A stretch of 64,000 nucleotides of DNA, from positions 1-64,000 of IMG/VR virus record IMGVR_UViG_3300020192_000008; one strand, written 5' to 3'. The notes beneath the pieces were generated by a model, which was not told the DNA's origin, did not search any database, and was given only the letters and a program-made list of their open reading frames with translations. Both the position numbers and the translations under genes were made by a program. This document shows positions 5,501 to 63,080 of the stretch, piece after piece. This stretch comes from a virus. Position 1 is the stretch's first letter. Each line of letters starts with the position of its first letter.

Positions 5501-6207
5501 CCGGCGCTCATCCGGAGCTGGTCTGCCTTCTGGAAGACACCTGCCCCCTTTACCGAGTGGATGAACTTCTGGGCCTCCTCGAGCGAGGAACCCATGTCGG
5601 TCGCGACCTTCTTCAAGGTGTCGACCATCTGTTTGAACTTGTCCTTGAACTCCGTGACTGAGGTGACGCCCTGCGCCATCCCCATCTTGCCCATGTTGCC
5701 GGCAAGCTTGGTGAGCTCAGCGAACCCGGTGATCTCCCCACCGGGTCCGGAGTCATGCGTCATCCCGCGCATGTGCTGACCGATCGAGGCTGACTGCTGG
5801 TTGGTGAAGCCACGGCCGCCTAGCTGGTTGGTGAAGTTGAAGTTCGACCGCATGGTCTGGTTCAACATCCCCTGCTGCTGACCGCCTTGGTACATCTGGC
5901 TGCCGATGTACTGACCCCCGGCCATCAAGGCCCCGGCCCCACCAGCGACACCCATGCCGACGGCGCCGGCGCCCATGACGCCCATCCCCATCTTGCCGTA
6001 CACGCTTGAAGCGGCACGCAAGCCAAGGCTCATCGGGTCCATGCCGAAGGCGCCCATAGCGCCTTGAAGCATGGGTGCACCTGCGGCCATCCCGCGGGCC
6101 ATCATCCCGCCCATGGCCGTATCCATGCCGGCCTGCTGGCCGCCAGCACCCATGATTTGGCCCATGAAGCCACCCCACGGGATGCCCCCAGGCGAGAGGT
6201 TCATCAT
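2518..6207 (-). CDS. putative tail tape measure protein
   Basis: 1229 aa, Gly/Ala/Met/Lys-rich and helical-looking with a hydrophobic N-terminal stretch; phage context with sheath and tube genes. Confidence 0.6.
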   Translation of the reverse strand: MMNLSPGGIPWGGFMGQIMGAGGQQAGMDTAMGGMMARGMAAGAPMLQGAMGAFGMDPMSLGLRAASSVYGKMGMGVMGAGAVGMGVAGGAGALMAGGQYIGSQMYQGGQQQGMLNQTMRSNFNFTNQLGGRGFTNQQSASIGQHMRGMTHDSGPGGEITGFAELTKLAGNMGKMGMAQGVTSVTEFKDKFKQMVDTLKKVATDMGSSLEEAQKFIHSVKGAGVFQKADQLRMSAGVRGMAAAGGLAMSEVTGMASIGSQISRSVGGLGRSGAFGGMLAIGQVGTAMKNGALSEEDIYNATGQTGAEGRQAFTSNMMGKSADFLKSGRGRRFLASVAGKDGNLNEDAVAEWMGGGMSTGRTMELAGQNLNGVGRANFIRNEGRLRGGALEKFGMMAPTMAYSQWLESRGHKPGNMDDRSMLAFQRFSGLGRDEADAAIKMVDNLPEMMRTMSRSGQDDKHNQRVQDYKKGQGLSGLSKNFEKAREGLQGKLQQIGADMFSAGSDTLEAWSNKVSGQYVQHFSEQADRAWRTSRGSGAVSNDAYNRVLGGGKTGGGGLLSGPSAQQRFFGDKGGMTGDAATKLGLLSSDSDRFQKAGYSFSAKAHTDEKTFDYEMKRNMGAHKAATQDAKIENLQFAKKHENFFTEMFADKSIQGSGEKRIDSITKYLKKKGGDESNSILKELRHQGEIGNNADSLGNKVGLITAAADVIGQGKEERQKYLAPDVTNLFSASMGASEGDRADKISDYLYGSNEAQDLQKKRDGESITDYATGKASKGRMISGGARALVLAGTAPLEGIGAGAKALGLSDDLFGFGAQQDSLRGSMDDYFTSKEGGSGTGARRGLGKFADSDEGINAARDMIGRNAESREDALKKTSKRMADLNRKDSLTDDEKGERDFLEMTTMAQEYGDAAKDPDKIAGLAKKHGLSPEAFEQRAKGVFGLVDSKNKEEFYGATKKYGKIAADTMDNVRTSGLATWNDQGEMELDSKTADELTAKGGAAGQGYVASILEATQAESKMHGGAGDEEYSDKGRASRKMAGEQGDNMTVQQKLATATIMRKKGLGDQADELNYVAGLQKKMSSGGNKGLADALGISMDQQSANKLFAGGSGDAAKQLAQAQGIDTKSKSGQAYMEDLQNITEKFKGGDKAGAARLAANLGGSDALKEAKLKKQEKDDPQSAAIKQNTAATAKAAEGSMKLLALIAGKTASAAEIGDAVAGTKGEAKKKVTTP

Positions 6208-6214
6208 GCCCGAA

Positions 6215-6223
6215 AGGGTAGCA
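6215..6223 (-). promoter_or_regulatory. sigma70-type extended -10 (TGnTAnnnT), leaderless spacing
   Basis: TGCTACCCT 7 nt before ATG 6207. Confidence 0.5.
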
Positions 6224-6267
6224 CGCCCCTTGACCTAGTTGACGGCTCAACTTCTGACCCCTTTCGG

Positions 6268-6282
6268 GGATAAGAACAATGA
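6268..6282 (+). promoter_or_regulatory. ATAAG-N5-TG phage promoter-like motif
   Basis: GGATAAGAACAATGA. Confidence 0.7.
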
Positions 6283-6312
6283 CAGCCCCTCAGCTGCTGC
6301 AAGGAGGTAGAG

Positions 6313-9149: not shown

Positions 9150-9808
9150 TGGCAATCATTACCAAGCAGACCGGACTCGAGAAGTTGGCCCATGACATCC
9201 GTGAGGGTGCAGAGCTGAGGGTGTACCGTTCACCCGAGGAGAAGAAGAGGCTCGAGGAGAAGTTGCTGGAGATCTCTCAGGGTAAGCTCTTCGACATCAA
9301 CGAGGGGCTCTGGGTCATGCTGCACGATCTCGTCGCCAAGCACTCGCCCTCGGCAGCGAAGTACCTGAGGAGAGTCAGGCACGTGGATGACCGGCACACG
9401 TACGTCATCGTGATGCGTGGAGATTTCGGTGCGTTGGCTAGAGATGGAGGAGATCAAGACGCCCGCATGTTCATCAGCATGCATCCGGGGCTGCTTGAGG
9501 TGGCTGACGTCGTGGCTGGGAGCGGGCACTACACCGCGATGGTGAACCTCTCGATGGAGGAGGAGCTCGAAGAGCAGGTGGAGTTCCTAGTGTCTGACTT
9601 CGAGGAGCTCTGGCTTCTGCGAGGGCCTGTGTGCCCCAACCAAGATGAGGTCCTCGACACGGACCTGTTCTGGGTAGCGCAGACCTTGGAGCTCGAGCAC
9701 TCCTACTGCGACGTGTGCCGCGAGTGCACGAGAGGCGTGCAGAAGAGGCCGCTGCCATCCAAGGCAGACATGCTCCGCCTGCAGAAGGAAGACAAGAAGC
9801 GGAACTGA
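9149..9808 (+). CDS. hypothetical protein, C-terminal Cys cluster
   Basis: 219 aa, CDVCREC motif, followed by terminator. Confidence 0.75.
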   Translation: MAIITKQTGLEKLAHDIREGAELRVYRSPEEKKRLEEKLLEISQGKLFDINEGLWVMLHDLVAKHSPSAAKYLRRVRHVDDRHTYVIVMRGDFGALARDGGDQDARMFISMHPGLLEVADVVAGSGHYTAMVNLSMEEELEEQVEFLVSDFEELWLLRGPVCPNQDEVLDTDLFWVAQTLELEHSYCDVCRECTRGVQKRPLPSKADMLRLQKEDKKRN

Positions 9809-9812
9809 AGCT

Positions 9813-9847
9813 GAGCCCCCTTGCCGGGGGCTCTCTTCTTTTCTAGC
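9813..9847 (+). terminator. hairpin + T-tract + TAGC terminator
   Basis: GAGCCCCC-TTGCC-GGGGGCTC followed by TCTTCTTTTCTAGC. Confidence 0.8.
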
Positions 9848-9850
9848 TCC

Positions 9851-10279
9851 TCAGTCGCCGAAGTAGATGGGCTCGGGACGAAGGTCCTCGTCACTGACCT
9901 CGCCGGCGGCCAGCTTGAGAGCACGCTCATTGGCATCGAGCTCCTTGAAGGGGGTGTTCTCAAGGCGCCATGCCTTGTACGCCTGCATGAACTCGATGAG
10001 CCCGTGCATGACCCAGAGCTCCCCCTCGAGGGTCTGAAGGTAGCCGTCCACCTGGCCTGAGGGATCTCTCTCGAAGGAGTGAACGTTGTTCACGAAGTCC
10101 CTGGCGAGTAGCCCACGAGTAGCCCTGTTCTGGATGTTCGAGCGCACCTCCAGGAAGAAGATGCTCTCGTGGAAGGCCTGGGTGTTCTGGTCGTGCGTGC
10201 GTGCGAGGAGCTCGTAGTTACGCTCCAGGGTCGCCAGACGCATCTCCGTCGTCGTCGGGGTGTGCGATTCGCTTGACAT
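9851..10279 (-). CDS. hypothetical protein
   Basis: ATG 10279 with SD GAGGAAAG (alternative start 10243); the longer track ORF has an in-frame TTA at 10409 in its spurious 5' extension. Confidence 0.7.
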   Translation of the reverse strand: MSSESHTPTTTEMRLATLERNYELLARTHDQNTQAFHESIFFLEVRSNIQNRATRGLLARDFVNNVHSFERDPSGQVDGYLQTLEGELWVMHGLIEFMQAYKAWRLENTPFKELDANERALKLAAGEVSDEDLRPEPIYFGD

Positions 10280-47514: not shown

Positions 47515-48210
47515 ATGGATAAAAAACTCATGGGAAGCTGGCCCCGGCTGGTCTCCGTGCTGGAAGCAGCCGAGATGCTTTCGGTTTCTGTCGATCAAGT
47601 CCATCGCTGGAACCGGGATGGTCTACTAGAGGCTGAGTACCCAGAGGGAAGAAGAGGGGGGAAGTACTTCCAGACGGAAGACATCCAGACCCTCATAGAA
47701 GCTCGGGCCAGCAAGACGCTCTCTGACCATGATGTGAAGATTCTAGCCCTTCAGTCTCTGGTCTCCTCCAAGAGGGCAGAACGAAAACTCGATGAGCTGC
47801 TTGGGATGCTCGGTGTTTCGGACGTGAAGCTCGGTACCTCGAGGGAGGAGGTCTTGGCTTTCTTCGTCGAGGTAGAGGACGAGATCAAGGAGGGTGAGCC
47901 GCTCCTACCCGAGGAGGCGATCGGCTGGGCCAAGCGGATGCTGGGCATCACCGAGGAGTACCTGGAGCTAGTGAAGGAGCACACGTTCATGCTCGAGCCC
48001 TGGGTCCCGTACATGCAGCTCTCCAAGAAGCTGCACGACAAGTTCCCAGCAGGGCAGGCAGGGGCCTACCTCTCTCACGCCATCCGTAATCTTCGGCACA
48101 CGGCGTACTTCTACGTGCGTCGGGCGGATGGGGTGAGAGAGGCGACGAAGCGCTTTCCCGAGGGTGGCGTGACGAGCCAGCTCCTCGGGATCATGTTTCC
48201 GAAGAGCTAA
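47515..48210 (+). CDS. MerR/Xis-type helix-turn-helix DNA-binding protein
   Basis: VSVLEAAEMLSVSVDQVHRWNRDGLL...KYFQTEDI. Confidence 0.75.
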   Translation: MDKKLMGSWPRLVSVLEAAEMLSVSVDQVHRWNRDGLLEAEYPEGRRGGKYFQTEDIQTLIEARASKTLSDHDVKILALQSLVSSKRAERKLDELLGMLGVSDVKLGTSREEVLAFFVEVEDEIKEGEPLLPEEAIGWAKRMLGITEEYLELVKEHTFMLEPWVPYMQLSKKLHDKFPAGQAGAYLSHAIRNLRHTAYFYVRRADGVREATKRFPEGGVTSQLLGIMFPKS

Positions 48211-51108
48211 CCCTTGGTTCGTTGGCCCCGAGTAACCGCCGAGGTTGGGGCCACCGCTCCGAGCGTTCTCTTTCTTCGGGGTGATGATGTCCGGCCTGGG
48301 GTGGATGATCATCGAGCCAACGAAGCAGTAGATGATAGAGTGCAACGCATCATCAGGCCGATCGGGCCTGTGCTGGTACTGGATCATGTGAAGAGACTGG
48401 TTGTACTCTGTGAAGATGTTCAGGATGTCTTGCCCGAACGGCTCACGGAACTCTTCCCACCTGGGGAACATGATCTGCTTGCGCTTGATGGCCGTGAAGA
48501 CATCGCTCACGACTTCCGTCTTGTGCACCTTCCAACGCTGCAGCTTACCGTCCCACTCGACCTTCTTCTTGTTACGGGCCATGTACTGGAAGCGGTGCAC
48601 GCGCTGGGTGCCGAAGCGACGGATCAAGTAGGCGTTGTTGTTGAAGCCACCGCCGTAGTCGCACCCGATGATGCGGACGTTGTACGCATGCAGGATGCGC
48701 TTGATCTTCTCGAGCTGGATCTCAGGGTCCGTGTCTTCACCCGTGAAGCGGTGGATGAAGAAGATCTTGAACTTCATCCCGTCGTAGTAGCCGAGACTCA
48801 TGACCGTGTAGCTGTTCTCGCCCGTGTTACCTTGGTACGCGATGCTTCCGTTACGCTCTGTGACGATGTACCCCGAAGGCACGGCGCAGCAGTACACCTT
48901 GCCCGCATAGGGGACGTGCTTCACCGCCGTGGAGGGGGTGTTGAACTGGTAGTCTCGGCCCTCCGACCACAAGGCTCTCCAGCGCGTCTTCCGGTTCCCC
49001 TCCGCAGGCTTGTGCAGCTTCACGGAGCACCGAAGACCGAGCTTTATGCAGATCTCCTGGAAGTCCTCGCACAGCCCTTTTGACGTCGAATAGAAGGCCC
49101 CTCCTGTGCAGCCCTCCCGAGGGTCCGTGTAACCGTCTCCGTCTACCAGGGCCTGAAACAAGATCCGAAGCTGCCTTTGGCCGAGGCCGAGGAACTCCCG
49201 TGGGATACGCTTCTCGTCCCCTTCGACCCCTACGTTCTGGGCGTACCACGCCCAGTACTGCTTGCCGTAAATGGTCCAGTTGACGTCCCCAGTCTTTGGG
49301 TTCGGGAACGCCTTGAACGAGACCCCCACCCGGTCGAGAGACGCCTGCATCTTGAGGTAGGTCTCGTGGTTGACCGTCTCCCTCTGCGACATCTTGAGGC
49401 AGGACGGGCGGCCCCCATCAAAGCAGACCCCGCCCTCTGTCACGAGATAGCCGAGTAGCTCCAACCAGTCGTCCATGGGGACGGTCTTGTCCTCAGAGCC
49501 CTTGTACCCAGGGCTCGTCGGCAGCCCCGGCAGCGTGAAGGCCTGCTTCTCCTCTCCTTGCCAGTCGACGTAGCCCACGAACTTGACGTTGCCGCCCCGT
49601 TCTACGAGTTCGCCCGCCGACTCGGTGAGCCACCGCTCTCCCTGGGAAGTCCCGACACGCATGCGGTGCGTATGGGTGATCATCAGATCGAGCCCCCCCT
49701 TGGTCTCGAAGTGTAGAAGTGGCTGGTCCCAGTCGCGTACCGTACGAACCTTCGGAGCCACGAAGGTCATCGCACGCGTTTCTGGATCCCACTGGGCTAC
49801 CTTGTCTTCGTCGGTGAGATCACAGAAGTACTTGAAGCCAGACTGCGTAAGAATGCGTGTCTTGTCATCGTGACAGCCCCAGTCGATGCCAGCGAAGATG
49901 TTGCCGGCGGTAGCCGTCTTGCGGATCTTCTCGAGGGCCGTGGGGTGCATCGTCAGCTTGGGGTCGCATGACTCCTTCAGCTGGCCCATGGTGATGGGCC
50001 GGAGGCCTGAGTCGTAAGACATCCCCAAGACTTCGTTGTAGAACTTGTCGCGGGGGTACCGCTCGTAGTCGAGCAGGATTTCCTCCCACGACCGCCAAGG
50101 CACCATCAGCTGGGGGATGCGGTAGCTCTCGAAGACCCCGTCACGGACCTGGTTGATCCACTTCGAGTCCTTGTGCATGGGGTCGATCTTCCCCCCGCAC
50201 TTCTCGCAGATGAGGCTCTTCTTACCGATGTTCTTCTCGCAGAGGATGTTCCAGTGCCGGCCAGCACCGCCACCAACGGAGGACCCGCAGTGGTCGCACG
50301 GCACCATCCACTCACCCTGCGTCGACATCGGGCGGCCCTTGGCCACGCCTGACCGGTAGAACTCGATGGGGTTGTCGAGCCCTTTGGGTGTGCCGGCGTA
50401 GATGAAGCGCTTGAACTTCTCCGGAGCGTGGCTTGTGCACTGCTCGATGACGGGGATGTTGTCGGCGAGAATGTCTTGGAGCTCGTCGAGGGTGAGCAGC
50501 CAGGCTGGGATGCCTCGGGTACGGTCGGCGTTGAGGAACGCATACCTCAAGGTGATCTTCGCCCGGTTGACGAACTGCTTCTCGAAGATGTTCTGCGACA
50601 GCATGGTCGTCGTGAACGTCTTCAAGACCTGGCTCGTCTCGATGGGCTCCTTGATACGGTCGACCGAGAAGACCTTCGTCTGCGTGGCTGACGGGCTCAC
50701 GTACAGCGTCTTGTACGCCGGCACGACGCACGAGTACGAGAGCATGATGTTGCCGATCATGGTCGACTTCTCGACCTGCCGGCCACAGAACAGGAGCACG
50801 CGCCTGGCTGGGGTGTTGTAGGGGCGGCGCATGTGCCGACGCCCCTCAAACGTGAAGTTCTCGTACCCCATACCGTCCTGCCGAGGCATCCGGAAGGCGA
50901 ACTCGGTGAACTGGCTGGGCAGGACAGCGGGGATCTTGACCGCTGCCCTGCGCTTCTCCTCTATCTCCCAGAAGTCCTCGAAGGGCTCTGGCTCAGGGAG
51001 CCAGGGCTTGCCGTTGTGCATCCTTCGGAGTTCTTCGTCTGTGAACTCTTCAGGCTCGAGGTCCTCTTCAGAAGGGACCGTGACGGGGTCAGGCTGGAAG
51101 CTGCTCAC
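48208..51108 (-). CDS. terminase large subunit (lambda GpA-like), intein-containing, TTA-terminated (966-aa precursor)
   Basis: Walker A GRQVEKST, Walker B LTLDE, coupling motif AGTP, CxxC pair, FYNEVLG, nuclease motifs GIDWG and DDALHS. Confidence 0.88.
48826..49875 (-). mobile_element. intein (350 aa) with LAGLIDADG homing endonuclease
   Basis: Starts CHDDKTRILT after GIDWG; block B THTH; LLGYLVTEGG and FQALVDGDG; ends VYCCAVP..YIVTERNG...QGN followed by Thr. Confidence 0.9.
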
Positions 51109-51527: not shown

Positions 51528-52443
51528 GGTGTTCCTCGAGGAGGTTCATATCCATCGTGTGGTTGCCCTGCGTCACGTCATCGACGAAGGGCAGCTCAGC
51601 CGTGTCGTTACGAAGGGCGATGGAAGCAAGCTGCTCCCTGAGATCCTCGTCTGGCTTGACGATGGCTTCCAACGTGTCGGTGATCTTGGCGACACCGTTG
51701 GTGTAGTTGATGTACTTTTCCGAATCCTTCGGACCGTTGTTGTACGCCGACTCGAACGCTCTGAGGGCACCGATGTACCTGCCTGCTTCAAGAATCTTGG
51801 CCAAGTCGAGCTTGGAAGGCATCGTCCCAAGACGCATCTGGGACAGCAGGGCTGATAGAGGCGAGAAGGGCAGGTCAGCTGCAGTCCTTCTGGCATCTGT
51901 GTAGAACGCGCGCTTGAGCGAGTCGTGCTGGCTGCGAATGCCCTCTTCAGTGTGGCTGGCTACCTGGTCTACCTCGAACTGCAGAAGAGCTCGCATCTCG
52001 GTAGAGTCGAGCAGGTCCACATCCCAGAAGAAGAACTTGTAGCGGGCTACCTCCTGCTCGGTGCAGGCGAAGCCCTTCTGCCTGGTGAGGGCGTGGGCGA
52101 TAGCAGCAGGCGGGGCCGATGAGAGAATCATCGCCTCGGTGAACTCTTTGATCCTCGGCGACTTGAGGATGCCCATGGCACCCATCACCGACTGGTCTGG
52201 ATGGAAGAGCGTGTAGAGCCCGTTCTTCAGTAGCCACCGCACAGACAAGGGATGGTTCTTGTCGTGCGGGAAGAACTGAGGAGGAGGCTTGAGCTCTCCA
52301 CGCAGACGATCGAGGTACCAGAAGCCCAGACTGGAGATCTGAGCGAACTGGCACATCACGATGATCTGATCGTTCGTGTACTTCTTGCCATGGCAGAGCA
52401 GGTACTTGAGGTACCTCTCTGCCGGCGAGCGCCTGATGATCAC
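51433..52443 (-). CDS. hypothetical protein (small-terminase candidate by position)
   Basis: 336 aa, two genes upstream of TerL. Confidence 0.65.
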   Translation of the reverse strand: MIIRRSPAERYLKYLLCHGKKYTNDQIIVMCQFAQISSLGFWYLDRLRGELKPPPQFFPHDKNHPLSVRWLLKNGLYTLFHPDQSVMGAMGILKSPRIKEFTEAMILSSAPPAAIAHALTRQKGFACTEQEVARYKFFFWDVDLLDSTEMRALLQFEVDQVASHTEEGIRSQHDSLKRAFYTDARRTAADLPFSPLSALLSQMRLGTMPSKLDLAKILEAGRYIGALRAFESAYNNGPKDSEKYINYTNGVAKITDTLEAIVKPDEDLREQLASIALRNDTAELPFVDDVTQGNHTMDMNLLEEHHELPAGADDGDGSEGSPLDGGGAGGEGEDLP

Positions 52444-52450
52444 CTAAGGC

Positions 52451-54628
52451 TAACGCCTGCTGGAACGCCAGCGTCTTGAGACCCTCGATGACATCCTCGA
52501 GGTACTTCACGCACTTCTCGAGAGGGCCCTGGGGGATTTTCGAGAGCCCGAGCCTCGACGACATCAGCAGCTCACAGAGCTTCGCCTGCGTGCTGTTGAT
52601 CTCCGGCAGGTAGGAGACGAACGTGTGGATGTTCTCGGGGTTCACGAAGCCGATGGAGAGGATCGTGTCGACCGAGGTGGGGTCGGGGATGAAGGCCGCC
52701 TCCTTGAAGAGGTTGCGCTTGAGGTCGAAGGCGGGGCTCGAAGCGAGCTTCTCCTGGGACTTCCTGCGCGAGGCCATCTTCACCGACTCGGCAGGCTGGA
52801 TGTGCCGGCCCACCCGGACGTCGACCGGCATGCCATGGGCAATCGCCTGGGCAAGCTTCGTCTGGGCGTAGCCGAGGTCTGTACCCAGGCCACCCAACAG
52901 GAAGAGCGAGTCGTCGAACGACAGGAAGTGCTTCTCGTCAGACGCCAGCTTGTCGATGGGGAAGCCCTCGAACGAGAAGCTGTTGACGCCCCCCGCCCTC
53001 ACGGTCACCGAAGCAAGCTTCCGCTGGGCGTGCGCCACCTTGTTCCCGCCCTCAGGGGCGCTCACCAGGACAACGCTTTCGGCCTTGCCCATGCCCATCC
53101 ACTTGTAGTCCTTGGGCAGGAGGAACGTACCCTCATCAGCCTGGGTGGGCTTCTGGATGTTGGGCTGCAGAGAGACTGTGCACTCGCGACCATCGTAGGT
53201 CTCGACGTGCAGCTTCTGCTCCCCGTCCGTGACCTTCCCCTTGATGGTCATGGGGATGGTCGCCTCTGTCTCGTCACCACTCTGACGAACGAACACGCCG
53301 GTGCCCGTGGGGGAACCGAACATGAGCTCGCCGTTGGTGCTCTGCAGGCTACCGGCGATCTCCGGCTGCACAGCCGCCGCCGACCCGTTCGTGAACAGGG
53401 CGATGGGCAGAACTGTGCCGTCGAGGTCAGTCAGGTTGGGGAATACGAGCCCCATCATCTCGGTGCCCTCCTCGTTCTGCACCTTGTACGTGCCGAACTC
53501 GGTGATGGGCTTGAGGTCTGCCAGCGGGGCGCCTTCACCCACGGCATCGTCAGTGACGGTGACCGAGCCATGCTCATCGGCATCCTGGGCGAGCTTCACC
53601 CCGAAGTGCTTGATGATGTCGCCTCGGCTGACGGAGTGAGCCTCCTTGACCTGCCAGTACTTGTGGTTCGCCTCCTTGACCCGGTAGCCCACGTTCTCCT
53701 TCGAGACCTGGATGACCGAGGGGCGGATGGCGCTCTCCATCGAGGAAGCCACCTTCTCGCTGGTCACCTGGTTGGTGTTCCAGATCTTGTTGATGGAGGG
53801 GAGGGTGGCGTGGGCGTTCTTCACGTACGCCTGTTGAACCCCAACGTCCTTCATCTCGTGGGCGAAGGAAGTAAGGTCGGAGCTCAGTGCTGTCGGAAGG
53901 ATGGCCTCGAGCAGAGAGGCTGACTTCTCCACACCAGTCAGGTCATGACCCGAGGTCTTGAGGTCAGACTCGTTCGGGTCCTTCTTGAAGCCCTTGAGCT
54001 TCTTGGCATCGACACCAAGCACCTTCGACAGGCGCTCTGCGAACTGCGCCTTGTTCTTGTCTTCGGCCGTCTTGGTCTCAACGTGCAGCTGCTCACGCAG
54101 GTAGTACTCGAGATCTGAGCTGGTCTTGCCCATCATCCCGCCGGCGCCACCCATGCCGCTGCCATCCCGGTGGGGCGGGTAGATCTGACTGGCCATCGAC
54201 GTGTCACCTGGCGTCTTGCTGGTGACATCGAAGGTCTGTGGGCGGAAGAGGGCTTCCTTCAGACGCCGCTCGGTGAGGGGAAGAACCTTCGAGTCACCAG
54301 TAACGATGAGGTCGAGGGGCTGAAGCTTCTTGTCCTTGACCACCACCGGGATGCGAACCGACTTCACGCCCACGGCGTCCTTGGCCTGGTCGCTTGCGCC
54401 TTGCTGCAGCTCGGTCTTGTTGGAGATCTCAATGTGGCCGAATGCAAAGCCACGCTCACCATCGATTCGATCCATCACCGTGTGAGGCTCGAAGTCCGAG
54501 ATGAAGGGGATCTGCTTGTACGCTTCCTGCAAGATCTCCTGCGACCACTGGTTCGGGTCTTCAGGAAGAACAGTCTCAGCGGCCGTCTTCTGGATCGGCA
54601 GGATGGAGTCGAGGTAGAGGTTCGTCAT
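52451..54628 (-). CDS. putative virion protein (725 aa), TTA-terminated
   Basis: K-x-A motifs; tandem in-frame TTA GCC TTA immediately before the next GTG. Confidence 0.7.
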
Positions 54629-55295: not shown

Positions 55296-56492
55296 TCAAA
55301 CGAGGCACGATGCTTCGCCCGTGAGGATCATCCCGAAGAGAACAAGGGGAGGACTTCCAGGAACGGGTACTGGCGTAAAGGGGAAAGTGAGTTGCACCAA
55401 TGCCCCCTGAGCAGCCACGGGCTTGGAGCCCTTGCCCAGGCGAACAATGCTTCCCTTGACGTGGGCCAGAGCTCCGCCATCGAGAACCATACCGTTCTTG
55501 GCCTTCATCAAGATCTGATTCTCGCTCTCGAGAGTCAGGTCTTCTTTGCTCTTGATGTAGATCTTCTTCTTCGAGGTGAGAGCCACGTTGCCCTGCGCCC
55601 TGAGGAAGACGCCACCAGCCTTGTCGAAGAAGAACCTCATGACAACCTTGTCACGGGTCTTGTTGTCGATGGGGTCCCCTGTGTCTGCGTTGAATCCCTT
55701 GGGGGCTATCACGCACTCAACCACGATCTGCTCCTTACCGATGCTGAGCAAGTCGAGCAGGCCCTGCTCACCACCATCACCCGATGGCTCGATGATGGGG
55801 TCATGAATCTTGCCCACCTTCACCCGAACATCTGCCTCTTCATCATTGGCCAGGATGCGAAAGGTGTGGGTGTACTCGCTGGGTAGGTCCTGGTAAGCCG
55901 GGCCTTCTTGGATGCCCCAAAGAACAGACCCACCGTGGTTGTGGTGGGCATAGTTCTTCGTCATCTGCATCAACGTATCGGTGAGCGGGATGTAGATGCT
56001 CTGGCAGATCTCCGAGCAGCCGATCTGCAATACACCGCCCCGATGAAGGATAACGAAGTTGCCATCCCTCGTACGGAACCAGATGTCACCCGGCTTGGCC
56101 TTGGGCCTACCCCCTGAGAAAGTCGCGCTAGTCGAGCTCTTGTTCGGCTGGTTGTTCGACTGCGTTCCCTTGGGCGCGTCCGGAGCTGCCTGGTCGTTGT
56201 ACTCAACCGGCATGATGAACGAGCTCACGTAAGGGGGTGAGCTGTCGGAGGGGACGGTGACCATGCACTTGGCACCAACCTCGGGGAAGACGTAAGCGCC
56301 CTCCCCGTTGTTGTAGTGCAAGTACATGCTGCCTACTTGGATGCCAGCAAACCTATGCCGGTCGAACTGGCTGATGACATCCACCGTCCAGTTCGCCAGG
56401 TTGACGCCGACGATCTTCCCTTGAAGAACGTACGACTCAACGTTCCCCTCCATGAAGGTGAACGAGGTGCGGAAGCGTTGGATGCCTTGCAT
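55296..56492 (-). CDS. baseplate central spike-like protein (gp5/gpV OB-fold N-terminus)
   Basis: GKIVGV...YVFPEVGAKCMV motif and beta-repeat C-terminus. Confidence 0.6.
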   Translation of the reverse strand: MQGIQRFRTSFTFMEGNVESYVLQGKIVGVNLANWTVDVISQFDRHRFAGIQVGSMYLHYNNGEGAYVFPEVGAKCMVTVPSDSSPPYVSSFIMPVEYNDQAAPDAPKGTQSNNQPNKSSTSATFSGGRPKAKPGDIWFRTRDGNFVILHRGGVLQIGCSEICQSIYIPLTDTLMQMTKNYAHHNHGGSVLWGIQEGPAYQDLPSEYTHTFRILANDEEADVRVKVGKIHDPIIEPSGDGGEQGLLDLLSIGKEQIVVECVIAPKGFNADTGDPIDNKTRDKVVMRFFFDKAGGVFLRAQGNVALTSKKKIYIKSKEDLTLESENQILMKAKNGMVLDGGALAHVKGSIVRLGKGSKPVAAQGALVQLTFPFTPVPVPGSPPLVLFGMILTGEASCLV

Positions 56493-59400
56493 CAGTAGCT
56501 GTGCTCCGACACGTTCTCGAGGTGCTTGTAGCCAGGCAGCTTCGACTGGTTCTTGTTCAGACCAAACTCAGCGCCGTAGGCAATCGCGGGGATCGGGTGG
56601 CTGCCGTGCAAGTTGCTCTTCGACCGCATGGCTGCGCCCTCGGCGATGGTGTCGCGGAGGTTGCGGTGCTGCAGCTTCGCCATCCAGTCTTCCTGCAGTT
56701 CGAGGGGCATCATGTTGACGCCCTTCAGAACAGGGGTGTGCTCGATGGGCTTCTTGCCCGCTTTGGCCAGGTCGTTGTTCATCTTCTGCACCATGCTCAG
56801 GGGCTGGAACTCGCCGCGCAGAATGCCCTCTGAGTCCCCAGGATGCACGACCTTCGTGAGGTTTGACATGGCTTTGACGACTACTTCGACATGGCGGCGC
56901 TTGATGCCCTCGTCCTTGTAGAGGGAGTACATCTCGCTTACGAGGTGGTTCTGCACCTTGTCGATGGAGCCAGTGGCCTTGTAGAGGTCGTGCGGGTTGA
57001 GCACGGTTCGGTGGGGGTCGGACAGAGACTGCCCAGCCTCGATGTGGTCACCGATCTTGGGGGGCGCCCAGCTGAGCAGGTTCTCCTGGCCTGGCAGCAG
57101 GTGGTGCAGAGGCATGCCTGTCTGGTCCTTGCCGACATGGTGAGGGCGCTTGCCGACCCACACGTTCACGCCCGTCGCTGTGTTCTCCACCTTCTCCACC
57201 TTGCCCGAGACCATGGCCAGGGAGGCCGCGTTGGGGATCTTCTGGGGGAGCATGGCGAGCTGCTCGAAGCGGCCGAAGCCCGACACAGCGGCTGAGGCAC
57301 CACCGGCGACACCGCCAGTGTGGAACTCCTTCATGGTGAGCTGCACGGCTCGCTCACCGAGCGTGTGGCTTGAGAGCACCCCGATGTTGTCGCCGATGTT
57401 GTGCATGTGGCCAGTTGAAGACAGGCCTACGCACTTCTGGCAGATGCCCTTCTCATGCTCACACCGCAGCGGGCTACGCACCACGATCTTGGCATTCTTA
57501 TCGGCGGCCTTGATCTGCGCGACCTTGTCGGGGGTGAGCAGCTCCCCGGCCTTGATGTGTACGTGCCCAGCCTTGAAGTCGGAAGCCAGCAGGCGATCGT
57601 GTACATCCTTCTCGTTGATGTGCAGAGAGATGCCCCTGGTCGTCCCGCAGTCGGGCTGGGTCACGAGGATGTCCATCGTGTTGTTCTGCAGCAGCTTGGA
57701 CATGTAGCCAGGTTCCTGGGTCTCCTGAACCTTCATGACCGAGCCCCTGCGAGCTCCGTGCATCTGCGTCCAGTACCCGGCCATATCGAGGCCTTCGGAG
57801 TAGCTCTTCGTAACAGGCAGCGGGATGACCCTGTTGTTCGCGTCCGTGAGCAGCATGGGCGCAATCTTCATCTGCTTGTACTGAGCCCACGACGGCTTAG
57901 CCCCAGCCTTGTACATGATGTACAAGTTGTCCATCTTCTTGTCGGCTTCGATCTTGTGGGCGTCGCCGATCTCCTTGTCGGCCTTCATGTAGATGTCAAC
58001 GATACGACGCTCCTTGTCGTTCTTGTTGACCCTACTAGCCCGAACAGCATCCGCCTCCTTGTGAGCGCCGACGAGCACCTTGTCTCGACCGATCTTGTCC
58101 GTCTGGAAGTCGGCAAGAGAGAGCGTGTGCATGCCCGTGGGTACGAAGATGTTCTTCTTCGGATCGTTGATGTTGTGAACACCAACGTTAGGCATGGGCA
58201 CGGTCACCGTGCCGAAAGCCGAGTGGTTGCCCACGTCCTTCAACATGTTGACTGACTTGTCGAACTGATCCTTGTGGTCTTTGCCGAGCTTGGTGAGCAG
58301 TGACTCAAGGCCCTTCTTATCGATACGCATCTCCAGGTTGTGGAGAAGGTCTGCTTGCATGCCGAGCGGCATGGTAGTAGCGAGAAGAACCCGGCCAGCG
58401 GTCGTCTTCTTACCGTTGAGAGAGACCACGTCGTTGTAGTGGAACTTGCCCCCTCGCACGGCGTCAAGGATGTCGCCAGGAGTCTTGAACGTATGGCTCG
58501 TTTCTTTACCAACCATCGAAAGCTTGTAGAGCCCGATGGCCGAGTCGAGGGTGGGGATGAACGCCACCCGCCCCGTGTTCTCCATGAAGATATTGTTCGA
58601 CGGCTTCATGCGGTGCGCTTCGGCAACCGCGTCCCTGTGGATGGGGACGAAGACGCTCATGGTGTCTCCGTCGAAGTCGGCGTTGAACCCACCGCAGACA
58701 AGCGGATGGATCTTGATGGCGTTGCCCTCTACACGCTTAGCCTGAAATCCCTGCACGTTGTACTTGTGAAGGGCGGGGTCACGCTTGAGCAGGATAGGTC
58801 GCTCTTCCATCACGGAGTCGAGGGCCTTGATGACGCTGGGATGATCTTTCTTCGTAAGGAGCTTCTGCGCGTCGAGAGGGTTCGATGCCGCACCCATCTC
58901 CTGAAGCTTCTTGACGATGAAGGGGCGAAACAGATCAAGCGCGTGGTCCTTCGGGAGACCGACCTCATCAAGCCCCAGCGAGGGCTCTGGGACGATGGTC
59001 GAGCGCATGGTCAGGTCCTGCCGCTTCTGGACGACGGACTTCTGGAAGTACCCGTTCTTCGGGGAGGCACCGGAAATCTGATGAAGGAGCCCCTTGTGCT
59101 TTGCCTGAGCGTAGGGGACGTGTATCCCGATGACAGCCTTGACGCCGTCGTAGTAGTTCTGACGAAGCTCCTTCTTCATCTCGTCGGTCAAGTGCCGCGC
59201 CAGCGTCGGGTCCTTGAGCTTATCGTTGACAAGGGCGAACTCCGAGTACAGCTGGTTGATGTCGGCGTACTTGATGTTGCCATCAGCCATCGGGGACGCC
59301 GGCCGAAGGACTGGTGGGATGATGGGCATCTTCGTCATTACGTAGGCTTCTGATGCGCCTACGCCCAACTGATCGAGAGCCCTGAGGTACTTCACCTTCT

Positions 59401-62400
59401 TCAAGACCGGGTCAACCTTGGCCATGGGAACGGAGTTGAGCTCCTTCATCCCGGCGGCCAGGTCCTTCTTCACGTCGACCTTCGAGAGCAGGTGCTGGAT
59501 GGCCCGACCACCGGTGTGGGCTGCGTCCTTGAGCTCGACGATCTTCCCCTGGTGGTTGATGCCCGACTCGCCGTGAACGATGGCGTCGAAGTCCTTCTGG
59601 GTCAGGCCCGTGAGACTGCGGATGGGGGCCTCGAACACTGGGTTCGGCACCGGCTCTGCGAGATCGATGTGGCTCCACTTGATGCCGCCGTGCCCACCGG
59701 TGAGCTTCTCATCAAAGAGACCACCAGGCCTGGGCTTGAGCTCACCGGACTTGTCGACCTTGGCTTCGAGGCGTTCAGCTGGCTTGGGCAGGGCCCTGCC
59801 AGCCGAGAGCTCCATCACATGCTTGTCCGTCAGGGGCGAGAGGATGAGCTCGTGGCCCTTCTTCTCGATGTTCACCCCTGAGCCCTTGAGCATGTCCTCG
59901 AACTTCTTGAAGGCGAAGGTGCTCTTGGGCGTGGGCAGAGGAGCGCCTGTCTGGATGGCGTTCCACACCTGCAGGTGCTGGCTTGGCCACTTCTTGCTCT
60001 CGTTGGTCTGGGGGTCTTCACCCTCCCCCTTCCACGTCTGCATCTCCCGGATGTTCGCCTTCGCCCCGTGGGCAAGCAGGGCGTACATACCGAGTGAACC
60101 GATGCGCTGACCTGAGCCGGGCTGCAGGTTCTGGTCATAGCGGTCACGGTTGGGTTGACCTGGAAGGCCCATGCCCGAAGCCACGGTGACCTTCTTGTCG
60201 ACCTGGTGAACCAGCTTGAGGATGTGCTGGTGACCCGTCATGGCATGCCCCAGTGATTGCCCCGTGACCGGGTCGATGAGCTCCTCGGTGTCGTGCAGGC
60301 CGTGGCTCTTCAGCTCCGCCTGCACCTTCGCCACCATGTCGACGTCCTTCTGAAAGGCCTGAACGACGTAGGGCTTACCCGTCTTGATGGCGATCTTCGA
60401 CGCTGCCGTCTCGAGCAGTTGGCTCACATTCATACGACCAGGCACGCCCGTGGGGTTGAGCGCTACCTCGATGGGCTTGCCATCCTTGCTGTGGGGCATC
60501 TCATGGTCGGGCAGAACCATGGTGACAATGCCCTTGTTGCCGTACCGACCGGCGAGCTTGTCGCCTGACTGCATGGGCTCGTGCGTCTTGACGTGTACCT
60601 GCAGGCCACCCTTGCCATTGGTGACAGAGACAACTTCCCCCTCAACCTCTCCCTCCCAGCGCAGGGACTTGTCGGCATGGCTGCCGGCCAGAGACTTGCG
60701 GATGGCCGAGACACCCGTCCTGTCCTTGAGCTCGAAGGGCTTCATGGCCAGGGCCAGGGGATCTCCAGGGGTGACCTTGGAGCCAACCTTGATGACGCCG
60801 TCGTCACCGAAGTTGACCAGCTGCTCCTTCTTGTAGACCCCGGGGTGTTGGATCTGAAACTTGCGGGTGCTCAGGATGGTGTCGGTGTCGACGGGCACCG
60901 TGTGCTTGTGCAAGTGCATCGAGGCGAGCTTCTTGGAAGCCGTCTCGCTGATGACAACGCCGTCCTCGAAGTTGTACCCCTTGAAGGGGATGAAGGCGAC
61001 GCGCAGGTTTGAGCCAAGCGCGAGAACGCCATCCTTCGAGTAGTTGGTGTCAGCGACTGTCTCGCCCTTCTTCACCTTGTCACCCACCTTCACAAGAGCG
61101 CTCGAGTGGAGCACGCTCTTCGTGTCATTGGTCGGGTAGTGGTTGTAGAGAGGGACGTCGTGCTTGTCGCCGTTCTTGTCCTTGATGACGATGTTGTCAG
61201 CGTGGATTGAATGCACGACACCATCAGCCGTTGCTTGGTGCGAAGCCTGGCTGCCAAGCACGGCCTCGAAGCTCTGAAGGCCTGGCGTGTAGACGCCGGT
61301 GCCCACCTGAACGAGAGGCGCTTCTCGGTTGACGAGGGAGATAGACTGCTCGATGTGGCGGGTGGCCATCGACACGCGGTTGCCCGAGCAGTTGTTCATG
61401 AACGGCACGAGGTTCGATGTCATGTTGAACACCTGGCTCGAGTGCTTCATGACGTAGTGGGCATCCTTGAAGGGGATGGGGCCCATGTCGTTGTCGTCTT
61501 GGGCGGCCTGCACCGTCTTGCTCAGTGGGACCGGCTTGCCGTTCTCCCACTTCACCTGGTCTGCCAGCACCACGCTTGACTTCATGAACAGAGCAGGGGG
61601 GACCAAGTCCATCTTGCCCGTCTTGAGGTTGTACAGGGGGACAACAGGATCGTTACCCAGCTTCCGTACACCGAGAGGCAAGCGCAACGTCACGCCAGTC
61701 TTCGAGCCTTCGGGCGTGTTCACGGGATCGAGAAAGCCGAAGTGGCTCTTGTTGAGCATCTTCGCTTCGTTGGTGACAGCCTGCTCACTCTGGATGCCGC
61801 CCGAACCCATGATGGTAGTCTGCATTGCAGAGCTCATCATCTCGACCGGGTTGATCTGAGAAGCCACACGAGCTGCAGAGTTCTTGTGGAACGACTGCTT
61901 GATCGGCTCGTTGAACATCTCGAGCTTTACGATCTCCCTGATGTCGCTCTTCGAGTTGATGTTCCTCGATGCCTTCATGGCGATGGTTCGACCAGCCGCC
62001 TTGATCTTGTCGTGGGCGAAGTCTCCAGCTGAACGCAGGTCCTTGAAGATGAGGCTGTCCCGGTCATCCTCTGGGTGACCCGCCTGCACCTTGAGCATCT
62101 TCTGCGTCGCCAGGTGCAAGGCCTCACCACTCACGTGATCGATGGGCTTGCCCAGCGTGACGGACGTAGCGTCAGTACGCATCTTCGAGTTCTGCATCGC
62201 CTCGAAGAAGTGCGTCTCAGCAACCTCCTTCGAGATAGGTGCCTCTTTGCGGTCTGACTTGTAGAAGCGCTCGAGCGTACCGGCGGCACCACGGGCATTC
62301 TTGTTGGCCGCGAAGATCTCTTTGCCCCAGCTCTTCTCGAGATCGTCGTCAGAGATGCCCATCGTCTTGATGAGCGGATAGAGCGGCAGTTTGCTCTTGT

Positions 62401-62872
62401 TGTACTCCATGTAGAACTGCTTCGACTTCTCATCGAAGAGCACATCGAATGGAGCCTTGCCCTGAACGTTGAAGCGTGTCTCGAGCTCACCGTTCTGACG
62501 ACGACGCGTGTAGGCACCGGGCTTGAGTTGCCACTGATTGTCGACCTGGTACTCCTGCCCATCCATGATGTAGGAGTAGCGCTGAGTCTGACGGGGGATC
62601 TCCGCGATGCGTACGCGGCGTTGATCCACCACTTTGCCAGTGGCGTTATCAACGAGACGCATGTGCCCGTAGACTGGAGCAGAGAAGCTGCCGCCGTTGA
62701 TCTTCGCCTTGTGTTGGACCCTCAAGTCATCGGGGTGTAGCTCATCCTTTACTTCAAGCTTGTCAAGGTGAAGGGTCTGCACCTTCCCCTTCATAGGGAA
62801 GTTCGTCTGGATGCCTTCCAGCGTTCTATCGCGGAAGTGCTCGAACGCTTCTTGAGGGTCTAGATGAGCCAT
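56492..62872 (-). CDS. rpoBC: fused beta-beta' multisubunit-type DNA-directed RNA polymerase
   Basis: Beta motifs TPEG, GYNFEDG, GDKLAGRYGNKG and GQRIG; beta' motifs LLKRDPALHK, NADFDGD (58664-58684), ICQKC and GERAVQLTMKEFHTGG. Confidence 0.95.
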   Translation of the reverse strand: MAHLDPQEAFEHFRDRTLEGIQTNFPMKGKVQTLHLDKLEVKDELHPDDLRVQHKAKINGGSFSAPVYGHMRLVDNATGKVVDQRRVRIAEIPRQTQRYSYIMDGQEYQVDNQWQLKPGAYTRRRQNGELETRFNVQGKAPFDVLFDEKSKQFYMEYNKSKLPLYPLIKTMGISDDDLEKSWGKEIFAANKNARGAAGTLERFYKSDRKEAPISKEVAETHFFEAMQNSKMRTDATSVTLGKPIDHVSGEALHLATQKMLKVQAGHPEDDRDSLIFKDLRSAGDFAHDKIKAAGRTIAMKASRNINSKSDIREIVKLEMFNEPIKQSFHKNSAARVASQINPVEMMSSAMQTTIMGSGGIQSEQAVTNEAKMLNKSHFGFLDPVNTPEGSKTGVTLRLPLGVRKLGNDPVVPLYNLKTGKMDLVPPALFMKSSVVLADQVKWENGKPVPLSKTVQAAQDDNDMGPIPFKDAHYVMKHSSQVFNMTSNLVPFMNNCSGNRVSMATRHIEQSISLVNREAPLVQVGTGVYTPGLQSFEAVLGSQASHQATADGVVHSIHADNIVIKDKNGDKHDVPLYNHYPTNDTKSVLHSSALVKVGDKVKKGETVADTNYSKDGVLALGSNLRVAFIPFKGYNFEDGVVISETASKKLASMHLHKHTVPVDTDTILSTRKFQIQHPGVYKKEQLVNFGDDGVIKVGSKVTPGDPLALAMKPFELKDRTGVSAIRKSLAGSHADKSLRWEGEVEGEVVSVTNGKGGLQVHVKTHEPMQSGDKLAGRYGNKGIVTMVLPDHEMPHSKDGKPIEVALNPTGVPGRMNVSQLLETAASKIAIKTGKPYVVQAFQKDVDMVAKVQAELKSHGLHDTEELIDPVTGQSLGHAMTGHQHILKLVHQVDKKVTVASGMGLPGQPNRDRYDQNLQPGSGQRIGSLGMYALLAHGAKANIREMQTWKGEGEDPQTNESKKWPSQHLQVWNAIQTGAPLPTPKSTFAFKKFEDMLKGSGVNIEKKGHELILSPLTDKHVMELSAGRALPKPAERLEAKVDKSGELKPRPGGLFDEKLTGGHGGIKWSHIDLAEPVPNPVFEAPIRSLTGLTQKDFDAIVHGESGINHQGKIVELKDAAHTGGRAIQHLLSKVDVKKDLAAGMKELNSVPMAKVDPVLKKVKYLRALDQLGVGASEAYVMTKMPIIPPVLRPASPMADGNIKYADINQLYSEFALVNDKLKDPTLARHLTDEMKKELRQNYYDGVKAVIGIHVPYAQAKHKGLLHQISGASPKNGYFQKSVVQKRQDLTMRSTIVPEPSLGLDEVGLPKDHALDLFRPFIVKKLQEMGAASNPLDAQKLLTKKDHPSVIKALDSVMEERPILLKRDPALHKYNVQGFQAKRVEGNAIKIHPLVCGGFNADFDGDTMSVFVPIHRDAVAEAHRMKPSNNIFMENTGRVAFIPTLDSAIGLYKLSMVGKETSHTFKTPGDILDAVRGGKFHYNDVVSLNGKKTTAGRVLLATTMPLGMQADLLHNLEMRIDKKGLESLLTKLGKDHKDQFDKSVNMLKDVGNHSAFGTVTVPMPNVGVHNINDPKKNIFVPTGMHTLSLADFQTDKIGRDKVLVGAHKEADAVRASRVNKNDKERRIVDIYMKADKEIGDAHKIEADKKMDNLYIMYKAGAKPSWAQYKQMKIAPMLLTDANNRVIPLPVTKSYSEGLDMAGYWTQMHGARRGSVMKVQETQEPGYMSKLLQNNTMDILVTQPDCGTTRGISLHINEKDVHDRLLASDFKAGHVHIKAGELLTPDKVAQIKAADKNAKIVVRSPLRCEHEKGICQKCVGLSSTGHMHNIGDNIGVLSSHTLGERAVQLTMKEFHTGGVAGGASAAVSGFGRFEQLAMLPQKIPNAASLAMVSGKVEKVENTATGVNVWVGKRPHHVGKDQTGMPLHHLLPGQENLLSWAPPKIGDHIEAGQSLSDPHRTVLNPHDLYKATGSIDKVQNHLVSEMYSLYKDEGIKRRHVEVVVKAMSNLTKVVHPGDSEGILRGEFQPLSMVQKMNNDLAKAGKKPIEHTPVLKGVNMMPLELQEDWMAKLQHRNLRDTIAEGAAMRSKSNLHGSHPIPAIAYGAEFGLNKNQSKLPGYKHLENVSEHSY

Positions 62873-62935
62873 CTTTGTGTCTCTGGTGAGGGTACTCCAC
62901 GCGCAAGAGTCGGTGCAAGGTACGCTTTTTCAGCG

Positions 62936-62950
62936 GCATAAGGACTTTGA
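62936..62950 (+). promoter_or_regulatory. ATAAG-N5-TG phage promoter-like motif
   Basis: GCATAAGGACTTTGA, divergent from the RNAP gene. Confidence 0.55.
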
Positions 62951-62987: not shown

Positions 62988-63080
62988 ATGAGCGACAAGA
63001 AAGAGCCAACCAAGGGAAAGTCCTTCGAGAAGAAGGTCGAAGAACTCTACGGAAGCGCAGGAGCAAAGAAGAAGACCTGA
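62988..63080 (+). CDS. small basic protein (30 aa)
   Basis: SD AAGGAG; TGATG coupling to the next gene. Confidence 0.5.
   Translation: MSDKKEPTKGKSFEKKVEELYGSAGAKKKT

Follow-up and report, generated by a model that had tools for sequence, protein, structure and literature searches.

Whether a tailed phage can carry the two large subunits of a bacterial-type RNA polymerase (RNAP) in one polypeptide, with which partners such an enzyme would initiate transcription, and whether it would travel inside the virion, are the questions raised by a gene located at positions 56492..62872, on the minus strand, of the viral DNA analysed here. This 64-kb stretch, called the window, represents the first part of the 107,272-base IMG/VR virus record IMGVR_UViG_3300020192_000008, and feature coordinates are window positions unless another record is named. 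An original prediction, made from the letters of the window, had read the gene as a streamlined fusion of beta and beta' encoding a virion-packaged early polymerase. The source DNA belongs to microbial mat metagenomes, five DNA runs of which contain the fused gene, and the source phage is an uncultured tailed phage of about 190 kb. The record, rated 58% complete by CheckV, is collinear with the 82-182 kb region of G002, a complete relative of 195,580 bases with a terminal repeat.

The Fused Beta-Beta' Polymerase

Both large RNAP subunits occur within a single chain of 2126 residues, in the bacterial order beta to beta'. The open reading frame (ORF) starts with ATG and runs over 2126 codons with zero internal stops, and its Pfam domains succeed one another as Rpb2_3 and Rpb2_6 (residues 336-897), followed by Rpb1_1, Rpb1_2, Rpb1_4 and Rpb1_5 (residues 1143-2017). 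Among solved structures, the closest to the two halves are Thermus beta' (E-value 4e-108) and Thermus beta (8e-73), respectively, whereas a jumbo-phage polymerase chain reaches 5e-21 only. The fused protein and six family members were aligned with MAFFT to the RpoB and RpoC of Salmonella taken from an annotated record. According to this alignment, the beta module covers residues 1 to about 1003 (59864..62872, minus strand) and the beta' module residues about 1004-2126 (56495..59863, minus strand). The two are directly joined at ..GVNIE-KKGHE.. (59855..59872, minus strand): the C-terminal GINIELEDE of Salmonella beta aligns to GVNIEKKGH at residues about 997-1005, near 59860, and beta' resumes without any linker from about residue 17 of its Salmonella counterpart. 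The junction, which is conserved in 22 family members, thus falls where the original prediction had located it, and the presence of both subunits in a single chain is likewise as predicted.

All catalytic motifs of the enzyme are retained. In the beta module, the catalytic lysines of GDK..GNKG and the flap tip region are present, and the beta' module keeps the Mg-binding motif NADFDGD (residues 1397-1403; 58664..58684, minus strand), the bridge helix, the trigger loop, the clamp helices and the second zinc site, made of Cys 1742, 1804, 1811 and 1814 (57431..57649, minus strand), which is invariant in the family. Most of these features do not vary across the 22 family members. The N-terminal zinc-binding domain of beta', by contrast, is absent, as had been claimed: the segment corresponding to residues 64-99 of the Escherichia coli subunit, with its four cysteines, is deleted and an invariant GGHGG occupies its place in the 22 members (here residues 1059-1063; 59684..59698, minus strand). 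Also missing are the E. coli lineage inserts SI1 (215-364) and SI2 (946-1049) from beta, and SI3 (about 948-1100), short pieces of the jaw and the C-terminal tail from beta'. With 2126 residues versus 1342+1407 for the Salmonella subunits, the chain is indeed shorter than bacterial beta plus beta'. The term streamlined suits it as far as this shortening is concerned, and less so as a distinctive trait, the difference resulting mostly from the loss of SI1, SI2 and SI3, inserts that many bacteria also lack. Five rifampicin-contact residues are substituted (Q513R, D516S, H526S, R529Q and S531T in E. coli numbering), a pattern from which the enzyme is predicted to be likely insensitive to rifampicin.

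Distribution and Phylogeny of the Fused Family

The phages that encode the fused enzyme make up a very large, uncultured clade with contractile tails and genomes of about 185-200 kb. A large protein collection contains at least 120 clusters that are 56-69% identical; nearly all have 2120-2160 residues, their contigs reach up to 200 kb, and some of them contain inteins. A scan of IMG/VR with the single protein gave only two loci, so that an alignment-based scan was needed to retrieve 314 contigs with relatives; the best 80 of these almost all possess one fused ORF, at 37-64% identity. Many of the relative contigs measure 183-199 kb and are rated complete, two of them with terminal repeats. A probe restricted to the 181 residues of the junction, scored against 1.84 billion representatives, matched 1,022 clusters at 50% identity (873 at E-values up to 1e-10), and nearly all of the top 150 show one continuous match, located around positions 930-1115 in proteins 2,000-3,700 residues long. 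The presence of the junction in about 1,000 clusters therefore identifies the fusion as a stable and widespread trait instead of an assembly error. Relatives were found in mats, sediments, soils and waters.

Many orthologous polymerases reach 2,400-3,700 residues and harbour intein/LAGLIDADG domains (PF14528, PF14890) inside the RNAP, among them L006 (IMGVR_UViG_3300045922_001133), P0003, P0027, P0041 and P0058; the window copy is devoid of them.

A more trivial explanation would be an artefact: an error of assembly or a frameshift might have linked rpoB and rpoC of a host, or bacterial DNA might have contaminated the viral bin. It is favoured by the several close copies found in genome collections inside metagenome-assembled genomes (MAGs) that bear bacterial labels, such as Myxococcales (69%), Deltaproteobacteria, Anaerolineales and others. 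These copies, however, lie on phage-sized, collinear contigs of 92-204 kb, and genuine bacterial rpoBC sequences are only 25-30% identical to the fused RNAP. In addition, the neighbouring genes encode a portal, a spike, TerL (the large terminase), a capsid protein and a sheath, and the identical in-frame junction appears on hundreds of independent contigs. Since it recurs in independent assemblies, an assembly chimera or host contamination is ruled out, and the probability granted to the artefact is negligible. The family contigs concerned (L110-L118) were assigned to MAGs labelled Myxococcales, Deltaproteobacteria, Anaerolineales, Desulfatibacillum, Leptolyngbyaceae and Bacteroidales; the labels probably result from mis-binning and provide at most a weak hint at the hosts.

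A tree of the beta' core comprising 36 rows, built by an IQ-TREE quick search and left unrooted, unites the fused family and the Arash/D69 phages described below in one clade with a Shimodaira-Hasegawa-like approximate likelihood ratio test (SH-aLRT) support of 100. All 16 sampled bacteria, a biased sample picked by a peptide pattern, are placed across a branch with a support of 94 in this unrooted quick tree, and the other phage enzymes fall on the phage side, where the branching is not settled. Because of the way the bacteria were chosen and of the missing root, no conclusion is drawn on the origin of the enzyme.

Comparison with Known Phage and Cellular Polymerases

Phage multisubunit polymerases, the clade of multisubunit-RNAP-encoding Caudovirales (mReC) and the fused polymerases of crAss-like phages are already known. 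Natural rpoB-rpoC fusions occur in Helicobacter and Wolbachia, with beta and beta' in one chain and in the same order. These are cellular enzymes that have kept alpha, omega, the zinc-binding domain and the lineage inserts; they show that such a fusion can be functional, and their existence supports the idea of an assembly without alpha developed below. The giant RNAP of crAss-like phages and the virion RNAP of coliphage N4 are also large single chains, which are packaged and injected and serve as a model for the packaging idea. The former, however, has no detectable sequence likeness to bacterial beta/beta', and the latter belongs to the T7-like single-subunit family. Neither of them is known to use a sigma70-family factor.

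The nearest annotated phages, at 31-32% identity, are Vibrio D69, D148 and D181 (187 kb) and Salmonella Arash (181 kb). The enzymes of Arash (gp206 + gp216) and of the three Vibrio phages exhibit the same beta-beta' junction and the same loss of the zinc-binding domain, whose site reads GGPEG or GGPDG in Arash/D69 versus GGHGG in the fused family. Besides their sister position in the beta' tree, Arash/D69 share with the fused family a genome of about 180-187 kb, a contractile tail, a portal near the RNAP gene and a sigma factor resembling Arash gp10. They differ from it in that beta and the N-terminal part of beta' make up a protein of about 1525 residues, and the C-terminal part of beta' a separate protein of about 606 residues. 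The split lies near residue 1490, and the two halves are parted by two to nine genes or homing endonucleases, whereas the chain is continuous here and in about 80 related loci. The genes following the RNAP also differ between Arash/D69 and the window phage. Arash has been published, its two polymerase proteins being annotated simply as beta and beta'.

Rhizobium phage RHph_TM30, Yersinia phage YerA41 and Cobetia phage Carin-5 have kept the cysteines of the beta' zinc domain, and the last two display the gene order beta' then beta. The mReC, a deep-branching metagenomic clade (Weinheimer and Aylward 2020, PMC7481178), resemble the present family as metagenomic tailed phages with beta and beta' detectable by cellular profiles. 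Their enzymes branch outside the bacteria, and those of the present family may do so too, judged from the unrooted quick tree with its biased set of 16 bacteria. Two source metagenomes are common to the mReC list and the related loci, with no contig name in common, and a search of the mReC supplement for the IMG sample numbers of the related loci gave no match. The mReC capsid (PF07068) and terminase (PF03237) differ from those of the window phage, which shows no Pfam capsid match and a TerL of the PF05876 family; the mReC paper, in which the RNAP fusion of crAss-like phages is mentioned, contains no description of a bacterial-type fusion of this kind, of zinc-domain loss or of sigma partners (PMC7481178). 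The polymerases of phiKZ and AR9 are two-barrel phage RNAPs without alpha and omega, one set of which is packaged for early transcription (PMC7598289, PMC13282480). They consist of four or five polypeptides in two paralogous sets and work without any sigma70-family factor, in contrast to the window enzyme with its one chain, its one copy and the sigma-family partners of its relatives, and they are far more divergent (5e-21, versus 1e-73 to 1e-108 for the bacterial enzymes).

Sigma, Alpha and Omega

The original prediction had stated that no alpha, omega or sigma gene is recognisable in the window, and this was borne out: profiles for sigma regions 2 and 4 and for alpha match nothing in the window or the whole 107-kb record, PF01000 (alpha) included. 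The absence of alpha (PF01000, PF01193) and omega (PF01192) extends to five complete relatives, whereas all control genomes score; each complete relative contains exactly one polymerase gene. A BLAST search of the record with the sigma factors of Arash, D69 and G002 gave no match either, as expected from synteny.

For sigma, the relatives tell a different story. G002 encodes a protein of 185 residues with sigma regions 2 and 4, detected by profile match (G002 9314-9871), and a gp10-like sigma of 253 residues (G002 70058-70819), homologous to Arash gp10 (E-value 9e-19) and with a Sigma70_r3 match (1.3e-9) above the Pfam threshold. The gp10-like sigma is found in six of six complete or nearly complete family genomes, at 34-67% identity, and the small region-2/region-4 sigma in many family members. 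Both G002 genes, at 9 kb and 70 kb, lie outside the part matched by the record, and the missing sigma is therefore no evidence of sigma independence. The sigma genes of the source phage are probably located in the part of the genome beyond the 58%-complete record.

Contact between core and sigma was assessed by complex prediction on a pair from the same genome, G002, using beta' residues 1035-1480, the gp10-like sigma and three controls. The result supports binding: the pair scores 0.62 and the best control 0.00, at a mark attained by 58 among 80 complexes of known structure and by 2 among 110 mismatched pairs, counts that apply only roughly since alignments made for this analysis were used. 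Contacts agree between the runs to at least 35%, and the predicted local distance difference test (pLDDT) score of the partner is 72 or higher. The confidently predicted interface brings the clamp helices (1209-1241) against sigma residues 37-80; complexes between sigma and clamp helices have already been solved, so that the result may reflect likeness only. Promoter recognition would thus probably depend on separately encoded phage sigma70-family factors, the proposed leading candidate being the protein of about 250 residues with regions 2, 3 and 4 that is homologous to Arash gp10. The sigma independence implied by the original prediction is not supported by these relatives, and a dependence on separately encoded sigma, which it had named as evidence against itself, is likely.

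Gene Neighbourhood and the Spike-Like Protein

The RNAP gene is followed on the same strand by a gene encoding a protein of 398 residues (55296..56492, minus strand). The two overlap at 56490..56494 in the sequence TGATG, read directly, in which the A of the RNAP stop codon is also the A of the next ATG. The downstream protein gave no match in Pfam and PHROG scans or in tblastn against 50,697 phage records, and it was identified by fold search only. Its AlphaFold model, built from 23 orthologues (pLDDT 72.5), has a gpV/VgrG-like fold and matches the central spikes of contractile systems with a Foldseek probability of about 1.0 and E-values of 2.5e-5 and below, namely the VgrG-like spikes of extracellular injection systems, the R2 pyocin spike, P2 gpV, phi92 gp138 and the Mu spike. 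An ORF of similar size starts within a few bases of the RNAP stop in about fifty related loci. Both the coupling and the spike-like label, which had been proposed from the window sequence, are thereby upheld.

The location among virion genes, also part of that proposal, is equally apparent. Along the minus strand, the portal gene (67111-69132 of the record) is followed by the RNAP gene, the gene of the 398-residue protein, further genes without a known family, and those for TerL, the major capsid protein and the sheath, a short block of plus-strand genes being inserted between portal and RNAP. The RNAP gene is proposed to be the first of a minus-strand operon and to be translationally coupled to the central tail spike gene.

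Promoter Candidates

Upstream of the RNAP start codon lies a divergent intergenic region of 115 bases, which is strikingly conserved across 34 family loci. On the minus strand, at 62889..62918, the sequence read directly offers a sigma70-like promoter candidate for the RNAP operon, TTGCAC-N18-TACCCT, whose -10 element ends 16 nt before the ATG. In 25 of the 34 loci, a TTGCnn box precedes a TAC(G/C)CT-like box, and in 24 of these the spacing is precisely 18 bases. The distance from the second box to the start codon is 6-28 bases, and the same pattern turns up in 1.6% of shuffles. The geometry of the -35 and -10 elements and the key bases, including A at -11 and T at -7, are those of a housekeeping promoter. 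A genome-wide search revealed no second copy in the contig, and this type was consequently dropped as a general late promoter. In some relatives (L006, L110 and L028), no more than 6 nt separate the -10-like box from the RNAP ATG, and the polymerase mRNA would then be leaderless.

The opposite strand of the same region carries a candidate of another class, tGCAA-N17-GGSATAAGAR, represented here by GGCATAAGGA (62913..62944, plus strand), which faces a plus-strand gene starting near 62990; its second part, 62935-62944, has one mismatch. Exact copies number six in the window, at 790, 1469, 6267, 6730, 7275 and 9134, versus 0.21 expected, all on the plus strand. They stand 25-45 nt upstream of the ribosome-binding sites of small plus-strand genes. 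The motif recurs about 16 times in G002, again 25-45 nt upstream of ribosome-binding sites, one of these copies heading the operon with the small region-2/region-4 sigma gene. In a k-mer enrichment with a maximal-order background, the motif was absorbed by the background model. A second divergent intergenic region, at about 6208-6300 and upstream of the gene at 2518-6207 (minus strand), has the same layout as that of the RNAP: it has a GGGATAAGAA box oriented towards the plus strand and a ..GCTACCCT box that stops 7 nt short of the start codon of the minus-strand gene, which encodes 1229 residues. Any assignment of a polymerase and a sigma to each promoter class is putative.

Proposed Mechanism, Virion Packaging and Alternatives

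The protein would represent the complete catalytic core of a phage-encoded bacterial-type RNAP in one polypeptide. The covalent link between beta and beta' plausibly replaces the assembly role of the alpha dimer, so that alpha and omega would not be needed. For initiation, the core would rely on sigma70-family factors of the phage, chiefly on the conserved gp10-like sigma, and the RNAP-spike operon would be driven by its dedicated and conserved sigma70-like promoter. This combination of a single-chain core, a phage sigma, independence of alpha and omega and an operon with its own promoter is regarded as probably correct. Several points weigh against one or another part of it. The contig itself contains no sigma gene, the partnership being deduced from relatives at 45-60% identity, and the complex prediction cannot separate the phage core from the host core as partner of the sigma. 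The tree depends on a quick search and a biased bacterial set, and RNA runs with the fused gene are not listed, a result that carries no information on expression. One may also imagine a self-sufficient polymerase that is independent of sigma, is carried by the virion and, once injected, transcribes the early genes. This would agree with the lack of alpha, omega and sigma in the window and in the 107-kb record, with a gene amid virion genes and coupled to a spike, with the abundance of the Arash RNAP in particle preparations and with the loss of the zinc-binding domain, which alters the region of upstream DNA and RNA exit. The contig, however, stops short of the regions that hold the sigma genes of its relatives, all six complete genomes possess the gp10-like sigma, and a homologue of the latter accompanies the RNAP in the same Arash particle preparation. 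The clamp helices, predicted to bind this sigma, have also been kept. Such a sigma-independent enzyme appears improbable.

Within the preferred reading of a sigma-dependent single-chain core, packaging of the RNAP in the particle for early transcription is proposed tentatively, with chances judged to fall a little short of even. It is favoured by the position of the gene between the portal and the spike, TerL, capsid and sheath genes, by the coupling to the spike gene conserved in the family, and by the detection of both RNAP halves and gp10 in purified Arash particles, where the halves reach the highest spectral counts of all particle proteins (PMC10585845). On the other side, 116 of the about 270 Arash proteins were detected in those particles, ribonucleotide reductases and kinases included, and the authors note a possible carry-over (PMC10585845). 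There is one polymerase per genome, unlike the virion/non-virion pairs of phiKZ type, and the housekeeping-like and unique RNAP promoter is no less compatible with early expression driven by the host, in the manner of T7, than with late expression alongside the virion genes. These observations would suit a middle/late polymerase that is not packaged: the host RNAP and its housekeeping sigma would read TTGCnn-N18-TAC(G/C)CT early, the phage core and its sigmas would then read promoters of the GCAA-N17-GGSATAAGAR type, and the virion-gene neighbours would reflect the history of gene order. The apparent contamination of the Arash proteome and the distinct recurrent promoter class that heads other operons, including that of the G002 region-2/region-4 sigma, point in the same direction. 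The same transcript, however, would also carry the spike gene and probably the morphogenesis genes as far as TerL, which are normally late, the Arash halves top all proteins in spectral counts, and a phage sigma70-family factor could equally read the TTGCnn-N18-TAC(G/C)CT promoter. The non-packaged polymerase is considered a less likely alternative, though a serious one. The boldest version of the packaging idea, a two-protein virion holoenzyme made of the single-chain core and a sigma of about 250 residues, injected with the tail-spike module and transcribing from the first minute without the host polymerase, is considered unlikely, without being far-fetched.

Other Features of the Record

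Two further peculiarities of the record concern its coding sequences. Among about 17,000 codons inside orthologue alignments, a single in-frame TTA occurs, in an antisense shadow ORF, versus 44 CTA and 102 TTG, and in-frame TTAs are placed exactly where several orthologue alignments end. The ORF of 893 residues at 51947-54628 has TTA at codons 726 and 728, where its G002 orthologue of 745 residues ends, and reading through would make it overlap the next gene by about 500 nt; in TerL, codon 967 is a TTA. Judged from these codon patterns, TTA may act as a stop codon in the source genome. The reading of the RNAP is independent of this question because its ORF is free of in-frame TTA.

The large terminase (47968-51108, minus strand) counts 1046 residues versus 636 in G002, with about 350 extra residues at positions about 410-763. 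Because of a weak LAGLIDADG_3 match in this extra segment, it is interpreted as probably an intein or a homing-endonuclease insert.

Significance

A literature search yielded no paper describing this fused bacterial-type family, the loss of its zinc domain, a conserved sigma partner or its promoters. The phage multisubunit RNAPs studied so far are either split and devoid of sigma, as in phiKZ and AR9, or too divergent to be aligned, as in crAss-like phages. The fused family combines a clearly bacterial sequence and a probable dependence on sigma with the loss of alpha, omega, the zinc-binding domain and the lineage inserts. Such a natural minimal holoenzyme could help to define the actual roles of alpha, omega and the zinc domain, and it might serve as an orthogonal transcription system of only two genes, for which candidate promoters are already defined. 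With about 1,000 clusters and cultured relatives such as Arash and Vibrio D69, the predictions are testable at the bench. Should the two-protein virion holoenzyme prove true, it would constitute a third independent kind of virion RNAP and the smallest natural sigma-dependent holoenzyme.

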